Below the pieces are notes generated by a model. That model did not search any database and was not told the DNA's origin. It was given only the letters and a program-made list of their open reading frames with translations. Below, piece after piece: positions 26,933 to 33,651 of a stretch of DNA of 64,000 nucleotides. Within the stretch, counting starts at the first letter, position 1; each line of letters begins with the position of its first letter. The DNA lies in assembly GCA_000004695.1 (NCBI GenBank), contig CM000153.2, forward strand, positions 928,001 through 992,000. The letters are read 5' to 3'. Source of the DNA: Dictyostelium discoideum (taxonomy: Eukaryota). The position numbers and the translations under genes are program-made.

Positions 26933-28651
<1,719 letters not shown>

Positions 28652-28820: not shown

Positions 28821-28877
28821 GACAGTTGACGGTAGTTTTTCTTATGAAATGACTGTAGGGTTTGCTGTAAGGTCAAC
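28821..28877 (-). ncRNA. Class I RNA gene (Dictyostelium-specific 55-60-nt ncRNA family), intact copy.
   Basis: RNA sense: GTTGACCTTACAGCAAACCCTACAGTCATTTCATAAGAAAAACTACCGTCAACTGTC + T4. It has the conserved 11-nt CCTTACAGCAA next to a 5'/3' GTTGAC/GTCAAC stem. The DUSE TCCCACAAAA lies on the same strand at 28966..28975. Confidence 0.7.
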
Positions 28878-28965
28878 TTAATTATGTGTTAACTTAAATG
28901 TTTTACACATTTGAAAAAAGATTAAAAAAATTAATTAATTAAGAAGTTTTGAATAAAAAAATAAT

Positions 28966-28975
28966 TTTGTGGGAT
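28966..28975 (-). promoter_or_regulatory. DUSE (Dictyostelium upstream sequence element, [A/T]CCCA[C/T]AA) for the Class I gene at 28821..28877. Equivalent boxes lie at 30371..30380(-), 31731..31740(-), 32408..32417(-, CCCATAA variant), 33511..33520(+), 29435..29442(+) and 32533..32540(+).
   Basis: Exact consensus matches sit 70-95 nt upstream of each predicted RNA 5' end. Confidence 0.6.
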
Positions 28976-28983
28976 AGTTTTGA

Positions 28984-29018
<35 letters not shown>

Positions 29019-29185
29019 TTTTTTATTTTATAATTAAATTTTTCAAGAAATAATTAAGAATTTTTATTTATTTATTTATTTATTTATTTTTTTTTTTTTT
29101 AAACCAATTTTTCCCACCATTAATTACAAATTTATCAAAAAAATCAGATAGACTTGGAAATATTATTAATTGGAAAAAAAAAAAA

Positions 29186-29246
29186 GACAGTTGGTGAAGG
29201 ATCTCTTTGGATGCAGAGAGAGAGATAGAAATGCTCTAAGGTCAAC
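29186..29246 (-). pseudogene. Degenerate Class I RNA copy. The motif is mutated to CCTTAGAGCAT, the 3' stem half to CCAAC, and the DUSE position is mutated.
   Basis: Alignment to the other copies. Confidence 0.45.
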
Positions 29247-29509
29247 TTAATTGTTTTGTTATTCCTTTTCACATAATCAAATAAAATTCAAATTTTGTTT
29301 TTTTTTTTTCAGAATTTATAAACAAAAAAATAATTTGTAGGAGCAACAATAAAACAAAACTTCAATTCTTAAAAAATTACCAAATATTCTATTTTTAAAA
29401 CTTTTTTTTTATTTTTTTTTTTTTCATTTTTTTTTTTTTCAATTACCCATAAAAAGTTTTAATTCACTTAAAATTTGATTAATAAATTAATTTTAAATAT
29501 ATATCAAAT

Positions 29510-29772
29510 GGGCATATCAGGACATCGAGTTTAAAACCTATTCAGACTCCAGAATACAAATTAATTTGAGCGGCAACGTTCATATCAATCTGCACTAAAC
29601 AAATCATTAGAGGAATGATTGCAAAATCAAACCTCTGAAGGTTAAAAAAATGCTGAGAAGTAACAGCATTAAAAAAAACATTTAGACCATAGTTGAGAGT
29701 CTTAAAATCCAACCAGTTAGTAGAGACTAAAAATTTACAAAACCATAAACTCGATCTGATACCTGAAATGCC
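29510..29772 (+). ncRNA. Unclassified 263-nt DUSE-driven RNA, copy 1. It has a long 5'/3' terminal helix and a T6 terminator.
   Basis: DUSE ACCCATAA at 29435..29442, about 68 nt upstream. The 5' GGCATATCAGGACATCGAG pairs with the 3' CTCGATCTGATACCTGAAATGCC. An internal hairpin is TGCTGAGAAGTAACAGCA. It ends GCC+TTTTTT. It is 99% identical to 32597..32859. Confidence 0.55.
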
Positions 29773-29882
29773 TTTTTTATTTTTTAAAATCTTAATGGTA
29801 ATGGAAATAGTGTGACATACCTTTTTACAACAACAATATTATATGATCAGAAACCTACTTACAATAAAAGAAATTTAATAAG

Positions 29883-29921
<39 letters not shown>

Positions 29922-30241
29922 ATAATAACCATAAACTATATAAAAATATAAAATAGAACTTTGCAATAAAACAACAATAATTTATCAATTATAGATAGTA
30001 TTTACATCAAATTATTATTACTAATATTTATTTATAAATTTATTATTAATATTTTAATTATATTTTTAATAATATTATTTATTATTTAGTCATTTAATTA
30101 TTAAATCTTATAAAATATTAAAAAAAACTTAAGTTTTATTTTTTATTTTTTATTTTAATATCGATTAATAAACATATAATCGCTCAAGATTTTTAAAATG
30201 AGAGGTAATGATGGTCATCCATAACAAACAATTAAAAAAAA

Positions 30242-30301
30242 GACAGTTGACGGAAGGTTTTCTTAGAATGAAGGAACTGTAAGATTTGCTGTAAGGTAAA
30301 C
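30242..30301 (-). ncRNA. Class I RNA gene copy (5' stem variant GTTTAC), DUSE at 30371..30380.
   Basis: RNA sense: GTTTACCTTACAGCAAATCTTACAGTTCCTTCATTCTAAGAAAACCTTCCGTCAACTGTCT. Confidence 0.6.
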
Positions 30302-30572
30302 TTAAATGTTTTACACATTTAAAAAAGATAAATAAAATTAATTATTTAAGAAATTTTAAATAAAAAATAATTTTGTGGGATAGTGCCAACCAATAAAAAA
30401 AAAAAAAAAAAAAAAAAAACTCCATTCTCATTGTTTTATCAAAAAAATAATTAGGAATTTTTTTTTTTTTTTTTAATGATCTAGAAACTTATTTTTTTCA
30501 TCAATAATTACAATTTTACCTTTAATAAATTGGAAAATTAGATGATGGACTGGAGATATTATAAATAGAATA

Positions 30573-30603
<31 letters not shown>

Positions 30604-30700
30604 GTTCTGACAAATGATTTGATACCTGAAATGTCTTTTTTTATAATGACAAAAGAAATGGCATTTGTATTGGTAATGGTATTGGTAATGGTGTGACATT
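30604..30700 (+). repeat. Truncated copy of the 3' end of the 263-nt RNA plus its downstream flank (GATACCTGAAATGTCTTTTTTT...GGTAATGGTGTGACAT). It recurs at 31963..32030. A tandem 20-mer (CAGACCTGAAATATTAATATTT)x2.5 is at 30948..31005.
   Basis: Identity to 29752..29820 and 32842..32925. Confidence 0.6.
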
Positions 30701-31087
30701 CATAATAAATATTAAAAAAATGACTTCAGAAACTTGCCAACTCTTTTTAATTATTTCCCAAAAATTATGAAAATTAAAATTTATAAACAAACTATTATAG
30801 TTTTTTTGCCTTAATGTCCAACCTCTGATTAATCAATAAAAAAAAAATAGAAACTTAGTTCCAATATAAGAAGTTTGAGGAGTGAAAAAAAATACATTTT
30901 GTTTTATTGTTTTTTTTTTTTTTTTTCAGAAATAAAAATTATTAATATTTCAGACCTGAAATATTAATATTTCAGACCTGACCATTCTTATATTGGATGG
31001 TTTCTTAGATTTTTAATTTTTTAAAGAATAAATAATTAATTTTTTTTTGATAAAATACACCACCTAGGCTTTTTAATGATATAAAAA

Positions 31088-31146
31088 GACAGTTGATGAA
31101 GGTTTCTTTGAATGTAAGGAAATTTTAGATTTGCTGTAAGGTCAAC
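31088..31146 (-). ncRNA. Class I RNA gene copy without a recognisable DUSE (possibly inactive).
   Basis: GTTGACCTTACAGCAAATCTAAAATTTCCTTACATTCAAAGAAACCTTCATCAACTGTC. Confidence 0.5.
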
Positions 31147-31188
31147 TTTAATGTTTTTCACATTTTCTTAAAATGGTTTAAACATACA

Positions 31189-31247
<59 letters not shown>

Positions 31248-31584
31248 ATAATAACCATAAACTATATAAAAATAATAGAACTTTGCGATAAAACAACAAT
31301 AATTTATCAATTATAGATAGTATTTACATCAAATTATTATTACTAATATTTTTTTATAAATTTATTATTAATATTTTAATTATATATTTATTTAAAAAAA
31401 TTAAAAAAATTATTTATTATTTAATCATTTAATTTTTTTAAATCTTATAAAATATTTAAAAAAAACTTGAGTTTTATTTTTAATTTTATATTTTTTTTAA
31501 TATCGGTTAATAAACATATTATGGCTCAAGATTTTAAAAATGAGAGGTAATGATGGTCATCCATAACAAACAATTAAAAAAAAA

Positions 31585-31644
31585 GACAGTTGACGGAAGG
31601 TTTTCTTAGAATGAAGGAACTGTAAGATTTGCTGTAGGGTCAAC
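31585..31644 (-). ncRNA. Class I RNA gene copy (motif variant CCCTACAGCAA), DUSE at 31731..31740.
   Basis: GTTGACCCTACAGCAAATCTTACAGTTCCTTCATTCTAAGAAAACCTTCCGTCAACTGTC. It is a paralogue of the 30242 copy within a 1.35-kb tandem duplication (29.88-31.2 kb vs 31.2-32.3 kb). Confidence 0.6.
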
Positions 31645-32278
31645 TTATTTATGTGTTAACTTAAATGTTTTACACATTTAAAAAAAGATAAATAAAATTA
31701 ATTATATAAGAAATTTAAAATAAAAAATAATTTTGTGGGATAGTTTCAACCAATAATAAAAAAAAAAATAACTCTTTTTTTTATATTCTTATTATATTAT
31801 CAAAAAAATTTGGAATTTTTTTTTTTTATTTTTTTTTTTAATTCCTAAAAACTTATTTTTTCGTCAATAATTACAATTTTTCTTTACTAAATTGGAAAAT
31901 TAAATGGTAGAGATATTATAAGTAGAAAAAAAAAAAAAAAAAGATAGCCAACAAAGCATTTAATACCTGAAATGTCTTTTTTTATAATGACAAAGGAAAT
32001 GTTAATGGTAATGGTGTGAAATTCATTAATAAATCTATTAATTTTTATTTCCTGTAAAATCAATATTAAAAAAAAAAAAAAAAAAAAAAAATGTCTTCAG
32101 AAACTTTGGATGGCTCTTTTTAATCAATATTAAAAAAACCTTAGAGTTTTTTAAAGAATAAATAATTAATTTTTTTTTTTTTTTTTTTTTTTTGATTTTT
32201 TTTTTTTTACCTAAAAGCGGTGTATTTTTTTTTTTTTTTTGATAAAACACCTCCTCGGCTTTTTAATGATAAAAAAAT

Positions 32279-32338
32279 GACAGTTGACAAAGGTTTTCTT
32301 TGAATGTAAGGAAATGTTAGATTTGCTGTAAGGTCAAC
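32279..32338 (-). ncRNA. Class I RNA gene copy, intact stem, DUSE variant ATCCCATAA at 32408..32417.
   Basis: GTTGACCTTACAGCAAATCTAACATTTCCTTACATTCAAAGAAAACCTTTGTCAACTGTCA. Confidence 0.65.
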
Positions 32339-32596
32339 TTTAATTTTTTTCACATTTTCTTTAAATCTAAACATATAAAATTGAAAACATTTAAATTAAA
32401 AATAGAATTATGGGATTTGATCATCCTAAATTCTTATTTTCATATGAAATTAATAAAAAATAATTAATTTTGTTTGGAGATTCTTTTTTTTTTTTTTTCT
32501 TTTTTTTCTCAATTTTTTTTTTTTCCCAATAACCCATAAAAAGTTTTAATCAAATATCAATACCATTTTTAAATTTGAATTAAATATATTTTTGAT

Positions 32597-32859
32597 GGGC
32601 ATATCAGGACATCGAGTTTAAAACCTATTCAGACTCCAGAATACAAATTAATTTGAGCGGCAACGTTCATTTCAATCTGCACTTATCTAATCATTAGAGG
32701 AATGATTGCAAAATCAAACCTCTGAAGGTTAAAAAAATGCTGAGAAGTAACAGCATTAAAAAAAACATTTAGACCATAGTTGAGAGTCTTAAAATCCAAC
32801 CAGTTAGTAGAGACTAAAAATTTACAAAACCATAAACTCGATCTGATACCTGAAATGCC
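32597..32859 (+). ncRNA. Unclassified 263-nt DUSE-driven RNA, copy 2.
   Basis: DUSE AACCCATAAA at 32531..32540. Same sequence as 29510..29772 with 2-3 substitutions. Confidence 0.55.
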
Positions 32860-33591
32860 TTTTTTTTATTTTTTATAATCTTAATGGTAATGGAAATCGA
32901 AATGGAAATGGTAATGGTGTGACATACCTATTTATATCAACAAAAACAGTATTTTGTCTACAGAAACCTACTTGCAATAAAAGAAGTTTAAGAAGAAAAA
33001 AAATAATAATAAAAATTAAGTTAATTTGTTATAAAAATAAAAATAATAATTTAATTGATAATAATAAATAATATGTACATCATATTATTAAAAATAATAT
33101 AAATATTTATTTATTTACTAAATTATTTATTAATATATTTAATATTTTAAATTAAAAAAAAAATTATTTATTATTTTTTTTTTTTAAAATTGATTAATCA
33201 GTGTTTATCCATTAAAGGAAATAAACAATAGTTAAATAGTATTATGTATTTTATTTTTTAAGAAATTAGTTATAAAAAATTTCCTCAGGCCAGGATTATT
33301 TATTATTTAATCATTAAATTTTATTTTTTAATTATTTAATCTAAAAAAAACATATTATTGCCCATGAGTTTTTAAAATGAGAGACAATGACTGTTATCCT
33401 AAATAAATAAATTAAATAATTAATTAATTAAAAAAAAAGATAGTTTGGAGGAAGGTATTCTTAAATAATTATCAAAGAATTAGAGTTTTTAATTTTTTTT
33501 TTTTATTGAAATCCCACAAAATTATTTTTTATTCAAAATTTCTTAAATAATTAATTTTTTTAATCTTATTAAAAATGTGTAAAACATTTAA

Positions 33592-33651
33592 GTTGACCTT
33601 ACAGCAAATCCTGCAGTTCCTTCATTCTAAGAAAACCTTTCGCCAACTGTC
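33592..33651 (+). ncRNA. Class I RNA gene copy in opposite orientation (3' stem GCCAAC gives one A.C mismatch), DUSE ATCCCACAAA at 33511..33520.
   Basis: GTTGACCTTACAGCAAATCCTGCAGTTCCTTCATTCTAAGAAAACCTTTCGCCAACTGTC + T6. A degenerate minus-strand remnant is at about 33425..33480. Confidence 0.55.

Follow-up and report, generated by a model that had tools for sequence, protein, structure and literature searches.

Non-coding RNA (ncRNA) genes of Dictyostelium, both of the Pol II and of the Pol III type, are preceded by a promoter element known as the DUSE, which is defined as [AT]CCCA[AT]AA and located about 60 nt upstream of the transcription start (PMC3188802; PMC7919456), and a T run is read in these genes as a sign of Pol III transcription (PMC7919456). 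The catalogue of D. discoideum small RNAs comes largely from cDNA libraries of 50–150 nt (PMC7919456). Because the founding cDNA survey was confined to this size range and annotation is Rfam-based, an RNA of 263 nt would escape the catalogue. Among the described genes, those of the Class I RNAs (RF01414) share several traits with the units analysed here: a DUSE is located about 60 nt before them and a T run follows, they are richer in GC than the AT-rich spacers around them, and they are organised in multi-copy clusters with a fast turnover between species. However, Class I RNAs are 42–65 nt long, whereas the unit measures 263 nt (245 nt in its type-2 form). They have a 5–6-bp stem and a CCUUACAGCAA motif beside the 5' stem, whereas the unit lacks this motif and is predicted to form a terminal helix of about 20 bp and six hairpins, and the Class I covariance model gives no score on it. 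Moreover, Class I RNAs occur in all Dictyostelia, and the unit was found only in the D. discoideum complex.

A second point of comparison is provided by the Y, vault and snaR/BC200-type RNAs, which are lineage-restricted Pol III scaffold RNAs. The unit would resemble them in its paired 5' and 3' ends, a 3' oligo-U tail and multiple gene copies, and also in rapid birth and death, copy-number variation and a function that is not deducible from sequence. Nevertheless, these RNAs contain internal A/B boxes whereas the unit has an upstream DUSE, the unit is 2–3 times longer than Y or vault RNAs, and none of these RNAs shows sequence or covariance-model similarity to it.

As far as can be judged from sequence, the two near-identical units described here are probably functional, transcribed copies of a lineage-restricted family of DUSE-driven, Pol III-type structured ncRNAs. 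The family is absent from Rfam 15, and it is of a known kind, that of the DUSE-driven Dictyostelium small RNA genes. In the searchable literature, no description of the 263-nt RNA was found by sequence, DUSE/SRP, thug elements or DdR names. A prior listing as an uncharacterised candidate is quite possible, e.g., in dictyBase or in the screen of Larsson et al. 2008, which is said to have been a genome-wide search based on the DUSE and on composition.

The two units and their setting in the window

Both units lie in the window, i.e., the whole stretch of 64,000 nt that was analysed, at a locus flanked by the phosphoglucose isomerase (PGI) gene (26966–28651), whose protein is identical to that of D. 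discoideum AX4; the PGI locus is found on the 5.58-Mb chromosome record GCA_054883475.1 CM142510.1. The first-pass annotation had placed the units inside a Class I cluster, and this cluster is real, with six Class I RNA genes called by Rfam within 28823–33649. The same annotation regarded such a placement as unusual, which does not hold, as it is the rule for the family in the loci examined. The units had also been described as near-identical, and indeed only 4 of their 263 positions differ (Table 1). The GC content is 33% in the unit body versus about 10–15% in the intergenic flanks. Copy B has a divergent Class I partner. The corresponding position beside copy A is occupied by a decayed Class I-like relic in which CCTTAGAGCA stands where CCTTACAGCA is expected, and on which the Rfam Class I model gives no match even at E≤1. 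The partial 3' copies previously noted at 30604 and 31963 were recovered as truncated copies, each followed by a flank common to the full-length units.

Table 1. Coordinates in the window of the two units, their regulatory elements, remnants and Class I neighbours.
Feature	Position	Strand	Basis or remark
RNA body, copy A, 263 nt	29510..29772	+	Fold and alignment
RNA body, copy B, 263 nt, 98.5% identical to copy A	32597..32859	+	Alignment
DUSE ACCCATAA of copy A	29445..29452	+	57-nt spacer to the unit's first G
DUSE ACCCATAA of copy B	32532..32539	+	57-nt spacer to the unit
A/T element TAAATATATAT	29494..29504	+	−16 to −6; possibly TATA-like
T6-A-T6 run after copy A	29773..29785	+	Putative Pol III-type terminator
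T8 run after copy B	32860..32867	+	Putative Pol III-type terminator
Terminal helix of copy A	29511-29521/29762-29772 and 29524-29533/29746-29755	+	Predicted fold
3' remnant of unit, GATTTGATACCTGAAATGTC + T7, then common downstream flank	30616..30642	+	30616-30720 vs 32840-32945, 73%
3' remnant of unit, ATACCTGAAATGTC + T7, then common downstream flank	31963..31983	+	29865-30674 paralogous to 31193-32015
Class I RNA gene, divergent partner of copy B	32281..32338	−	Rfam, 55.6 bits; part of ~1-kb duplicated module
DUSE of copy B's Class I partner	32408-32415	−	Motif search
Decayed Class I-like relic, in the divergent-partner position of copy A	29186..29247	−	blastn homology to Class I gene regions

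A DUSE precedes each unit, as annotated, although the distance of about 68 nt given before is not correct: the element starts 65 nt upstream and is separated from the body by a spacer of 57 nt. The DUSE 8-mer pattern by itself is not enriched in the window (21 observed versus 22.7 expected), and the weight of this element comes from its spacing, which is constant at 56–57 nt across all 13 copies of the family detected in this and other genomes. ACCCATAA occupies this position in 12 of them, and a decayed copy has ACCCTGAA there. The family therefore agrees with the published DUSE-class arrangement, in which [AT]CCCA[AT]AA precedes the start by about 60 nt. The spacer keeps its length while its sequence drifts, except that TTAAATATA is kept in most copies; the A/T element at −16 to −6 is possibly TATA-like.

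The bodies of both units end in GCC followed by a T run, as had been noted, with T6 at 29773–29778 in copy A and T8 in copy B. A run of T6–T20 lies directly 3' of all 13 copies and none of them contains an internal run of T4 or longer, and the copies thus have the sequence arrangement of Pol III genes, i.e., a terminal run of at least 4–5 T and none inside. The lack of internal T4+ runs is not significant for the base composition of the unit, since 51% of shuffles are equally devoid of them. It does contrast, however, with seven A4+ runs in copy A and with a mean of 5.8 T4+ runs per 263 nt in the intergenic background. The 23-mer at the 3' end of the unit did not occur in any of 100 shuffles of the window.

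Downstream of every unit or remnant there is a (GGTAAT/GGAAAT)n microsatellite, with a conserved GTGTGACAT(A/T)C block 3' of it (29786–29830, 32880–32930, 30650–30700 and 31995–32030). This block resembles the published Class I 'TGTG box', in this case in a position downstream of the unit. The ncRNA cluster also contains a long-hairpin candidate at 30860–30997, an imperfect 28-nt inverted repeat (30860–30887/30970–30997, 79% complementary) that holds a tandem 22-nt repeat, AATATTAATATTTCAGACCTG, at 30937–30980.

Copies in other genomes and their divergence

The syntenic window locus was taken from seven other assemblies via orthologues of the flanking isomerase gene. It contains two copies of the unit in D. 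discoideum strain L008, one intact and one 5'-truncated copy in D. cf. discoideum L006, and three intact copies on the opposite strand together with a decayed one in D. cf. discoideum L007. At the same site in D. citrinum, D. dimigraforme, D. firmibasis and D. purpureum the unit is absent, and the spacer is short and without Class I genes. A second locus, beside a COBRA1-like gene and a prolyl-tRNA synthetase gene, was found because an annotated 'hypothetical protein' (P0121) turned up in a homology search with a 98-codon frame, itself spurious, that crosses the unit. In strain GCA_054859355.1 (L014) this locus holds two copies of the 263-nt kind (type 1), both with a divergent Class I gene 246–258 nt upstream, and a 245-nt paralogue (type 2), which has a duplicate of the GCAA hairpin and lacks about 57 nt of the 3' domain; all three copies are accompanied by a DUSE and a T run. 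The window's own genome contains a type-2 copy at the second locus, about 720 kb away (L016 4688–4934), and this paralogue keeps the DUSE spacing and the T run in two strains. The D. citrinum site at the second locus is an empty spacer of 390 bp from which the unit is absent.

Altogether, six D. discoideum and D. cf. discoideum assemblies yielded 13 copies, which are distributed over two loci separated by about 720 kb, with a copy number of 1 to 4 per locus and with orientation and domain content that vary among strains. An nhmmer profile of all copies and blastn retrieved nothing further in any fetched locus, sister species included. Metagenome scans with two conserved words gave no match for one of them and, for the other, five chance 20-mer matches in contigs of 42–44% GC. 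When the spurious frame was used in an exhaustive profile search, a single further match was obtained, P0251 (449 aa), which appears to be a spurious gene model of 449 aa over the L008 cluster. Among the loci fetched, the family is so far restricted to the D. discoideum species complex.

Some peculiarities of the second locus are worth recording. The type-1 copy at L014 10356–10679 (−) carries a pure poly(A) expansion of about 55 nt in the A8 linker that follows the AGAAGUAA hairpin; Pol III would not stop at an A run as it does at a T run. The far side of the locus in the window's own genome is occupied by a gene of 734 aa (L016 774–2978, +) with VapE-like/DUF5906 (primase-helicase-like) domains, which was not seen at the equivalent place in L014 or in D. 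citrinum L015 and may be an insertion derived from a virus or mobile element. Furthermore, the Class I genes nearest to the COBRA1-like gene run in opposite directions in L014 (9097–9154, −) and L016 (5531–5588, −) once the loci are co-oriented, which suggests a local inversion or non-orthologous copies.

The divergence of the copies is unevenly distributed. Paralogue bodies are 98–99% identical, against 70–88% in the 57-nt spacer and 58–75% in the 150 nt downstream. Between copies A and B, identity amounts to 62% from −200 to −66 and 70% over the 57-nt spacer, rises to 98% within the body and falls back to 64% over the next 150 nt, and the three L007 copies have bodies that are 99% identical between flanks of 58–88%. 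Over all copy pairs, the body reaches 92–99%, the near upstream spacer 70–89%, the farther upstream region 62–80% and the downstream flank 58–78%, with an abrupt shift at the body edges. Orthologues from different strains are 92–96% identical, and paralogues in one genome are more alike. This pattern is reminiscent of snRNA gene families and, at the level of sequence, points to concerted evolution (gene conversion) or to selection confined to the putatively transcribed segment. A copy with a mutated DUSE and a promoter-less copy have decayed to 82–84%. The between-strain divergence of the body is 4–8%, compared with 6.4–11.4% at PGI fourfold sites; since it is only somewhat below the fourfold-site level, constraint could be weak, and the contrast between body and flanks could arise in part from gene conversion.

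The association with Class I genes extends beyond the window. There are ten full-length type-1 units, and 243–282 nt upstream of seven of them Rfam calls a Class I gene that is divergently oriented. Homology between the two loci extends over 982 nt (82.7% identity), and over about 700 nt within the window. The 982-nt segment takes in both genes, i.e., the Class I gene and the unit, with their divergent promoters, and continues for about 320 nt downstream of the unit. Because this homology reaches far past the inverted termini of the unit, the duplicated segment is a two-gene module of about 1 kb.

Predicted fold and comparison with known RNA families

The predicted minimum free energy of copy A is −63.6 kcal/mol, compared with −36.6 ± 3.8 kcal/mol in 200 dinucleotide shuffles (z = −7.05), and the type-2 z-scores are −4.65 and −3.77. 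The ends of the unit, which the first-pass annotation had recognised as complementary, pair in the predicted fold as a closing helix of about 20 bp composed of GGCAU/AUGCC, UCAGG/CCUGA and AUCGAGUUUA/UAAACUCGAU. These segments of 5, 5 and 10 bp are separated by one A.A mismatch and an internal loop of 2x6 nt. Six hairpins are enclosed by this helix in copy A, with the loops AGACUCCA, GCAA, GCAA, AGAAGUAA, GUCUUAAAA and GACUAAAAA, which correspond in the consensus fold to the AGACUCCA-loop hairpin, the long GCAA hairpin, the central GCAA hairpin, the AGAAGUAA hairpin and two small 3' hairpins. The AGAAGUAA hairpin has a 7-bp stem and is the internal hairpin reported before, AAUGCUG-AGAAGUAA-CAGCAUU, found at 29649–29670. 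The central tetraloop is GCAA in copy A and GAAA in some other copies, being GNRA in either case, and the AGACUCCA and AGAAGUAA loops are invariant among copies. The paired state is retained in 97% of the alignment cells. Compensatory series occur at two pairs only, one at the end of the terminal helix (GC/GU/AU) and one in the GCAA hairpin, where UA switches to AU, and covariation in the alignment of copies does not exceed the shuffle control because the sequences are too similar.

Several specific assignments were considered and discarded. A kink-turn or box C/D reading of the terminal internal loop fails on inspection, as there is a register conflict and the xxGAUA loop bases are variable. 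In a U2-like pairing of UAUCAG with CUGAUA, changes at the second base of CUGAUA are not compensated, and a candidate telomerase template, CCUCU, becomes AAUCU in three intact copies and is thus not conserved between copies.

All 4227 families of Rfam 15 were searched, with the gathering threshold for the window and for 10 loci and permissively (E≤10) for sequences of 266–501 nt from both subtypes (copy A at 276 nt and 501 nt, and the type-2 copy). At the gathering threshold, only Class I genes were detected in the window and the 10 loci, and the units gave no match. RF01414 (threshold 41.5) matches six neighbouring Class I genes and never the unit. The permissive scans agree with the earlier statement that snRNA, U3 and RNase P signatures are lacking. 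The covariance-model comparison that had been proposed (SRP, RNase P/MRP, U3 and others) identified no family for either subtype. RNase P and MRP (RNaseP_nuc and RNase_MRP, with CR-I/CR-V forming P4) gave no match at E≤10, and neither did 7SK, Y, vault, telomerase or spliceosomal snRNA models in either subtype. Matches to unrelated snoRNA, miRNA and U7 models on either strand were at chance level (12–18 bits, E about 1–10) and none was common to both subtypes; neither a box C/D nor an H/ACA snoRNA was recognised. IMES-2, a marine metagenome motif, scored 24 bits against a threshold of 54.7 bits, and SAM-II matched the type-1 unit weakly; neither match was repeated in the type-2 paralogue.

SRP (7SL) RNA, or more generally a housekeeping RNA, had been the favoured identity in the first-pass annotation. 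SRP RNA does resemble the unit in its size, its Pol III-type terminator, a long helix that includes the 3' end and tetraloops of the GNRA/GNAR type. However, Rfam includes a dedicated Dictyostelium SRP model, and no model of the SRP clan matches the unit at E≤10. Unlike in SRP RNA, the 5' end of the unit is predicted to pair directly with its 3' end, there is no Alu-domain pair of hairpins, the content varies between paralogues, and the unit is not conserved in sister species at the loci examined, its gene being absent from their syntenic sites. As for the helix-8 signature that had been suggested as a check, the GCAA tetraloops formally fit GNAR, but the SRP54-binding loops of helix 8 are absent. 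The proposed identity was therefore abandoned.

Relations between the unit and the neighbouring Class I RNAs were also considered. RNAduplex predictions of the unit against six Class I RNAs were not significant (best z −2.6, with unrealistic loops), and direct base-pairing with these RNAs is thus not supported by the modelling. A strand of a unit hairpin, UAACAGCAUUAAAA, resembles the Class I motif UUACAGCAAUUAAA. What suggests a link with the Class I pathway is the genomic association, i.e., the co-duplication, together with this short resemblance. At 29657–29680 and 32744–32767, the 3' strand of the AGAAGUAA hairpin and its linker (UAACAGCAUUAAAAAAAACAUUU) likewise resemble the Class I signature UUACAGCAAUUAAAACA of the Rfam consensus, with an ACAGCA core expected, on a rough estimate, about 0.05 times per unit. 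The likeness of both UAACAGCAUUAAAA and UAACAGCAUUAAAAAAAACAUUU to Class I sequences could be due to chance.

Proposed expression and alternative readings

In the model that we favour, transcription would be directed by the DUSE located 57 nt upstream and by the conserved TAAATATA-like element at about −16. Because of the published usage of the DUSE and the T run, Pol III is the polymerase most likely to transcribe copy A, starting at about 29510 and stopping at the T run that immediately follows ...AAUG(C/U)C. The product of about 263 nt would end in a 3' oligo-U that may be bound by a La-type protein. Both RNA ends would be locked in the helix of about 20 bp that closes a multi-branched fold of six hairpins, from which two GNRA tetraloops and the invariant loops AGACUCCA and AGAAGUAA would be offered for binding. 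Since these invariant loops, and likewise the single-stranded stretches of constrained sequence, resemble binding surfaces, the favoured interpretation of the modelled structure is a stable scaffold RNA that is bound by protein and acts in an RNP. The family would have spread by segmental duplication of modules of about 1 kb, each with a divergent Class I gene, and the copies of one genome would be kept alike across the transcribed part only. A more far-reaching and doubtful proposal is that the 263-nt RNA and its divergent Class I partner constitute a functional two-gene module born in the D. discoideum lineage, in which the large RNA is a new cytoplasmic or nuclear RNP scaffold of the Class I developmental pathway; for example, the ACAGCA-containing hairpin might bind or buffer Class I-binding proteins of the Rnp1A type. 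If true, this would represent a regulatory RNA of recent origin that is linked to multicellular development.

Other readings of the same data have to be weighed against the structured ncRNA family. The species-complex restriction, the variable copy number and the frequent decayed or truncated copies are also what would be seen if the unit were a young and effectively neutral by-product carried along with Class I duplications, maybe transcribed but without a function of its own, and a between-strain body divergence near that of fourfold sites and the lack of significant covariation fit this as well. Such a by-product is nevertheless unlikely to account for bodies that are 98–99% identical within a genome while adjoining DNA is at 58–88%, for a DUSE spacing and a T run present in 13 of 13 copies and kept by the type-2 form in two strains, for folding energies far beyond those of shuffles in both subtypes, or for the faster decay of promoter-less copies. 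A highly diverged housekeeping RNA (SRP/7SL, RNase MRP/P, 7SK, telomerase, vault or Y RNA) would suit the size, the Pol III-like terminator, the DUSE, the long terminal helix and, formally, the GNAR-type tetraloops. We consider it very improbable, as none of these families was detected at E≤10 in type 1 or type 2, the telomerase variant lacks a template conserved between copies, and the unit is missing from both D. citrinum syntenic sites and from the window-locus site of three more sister species. Its copy number of 1 to 4 per locus and a natural variant without about 57 nt and with a duplicated hairpin, of a kind that essential RNAs rarely tolerate, also speak against this identity. In addition, the SRP RNA of D. 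discoideum is already known and serves as a northern probe (PMC2175303).

The near-perfect terminal helix of about 20 bp could alternatively be a Dicer substrate in a precursor that is cut into small RNAs, and D. discoideum miRNAs indeed arise from intergenic hairpins (PMC6161686). However, known Dictyostelium pri-miRNAs are capped Pol II transcripts with T tracts preceding their start sites and no described DUSE (PMC6161686), and the unit is predicted to be a closed multi-hairpin RNA rather than a simple hairpin, which leaves little probability for a precursor of this type. The least credible reading, to which we assign almost no weight, is that of a non-autonomous DNA transposon (MITE-like) whose terminal complementarity reflects terminal inverted repeats, an explanation that the first-pass annotation had kept in reserve. 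Like MITE-type elements, the unit is short, has complementary ends of about 20 nt and occurs in several copies in both orientations at two loci. Unlike in such elements, the duplicated segment is far wider than the inverted repeats: homology between copies runs about 1 kb beyond them, the 982-nt inter-locus homology is not bounded by inverted repeats, and identity falls sharply at the body edges, yet homology goes on. Moreover, the flanks of the copies, when aligned, show no evident target-site duplication, and every copy found lies within a Class I cluster instead of being dispersed.

If expressed, the structured ncRNA family would add to the DUSE-dependent RNAs of Dictyostelium a family with a defined fold, concerted evolution and copy-number variation among strains, and with a physical linkage to the Class I RNA genes, which are important in development. 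It would constitute a tractable case of recent birth of a structured-RNA gene and is an easy knockout target, with two type-1 copies and one type-2 copy in the reference-like genome. A further implication concerns genome annotation, as these RNA clusters are overlaid by very probably spurious protein-coding models in the current NCBI annotation of several new Dictyostelium assemblies. Multi-exon 'hypothetical proteins' are annotated over the ncRNA clusters at L014 10001–11721, L008 12395–17674 and L007 13636–20417, with models of 113, 449 and 536 aa, and these protein models across the unit and Class I clusters are almost certainly spurious.
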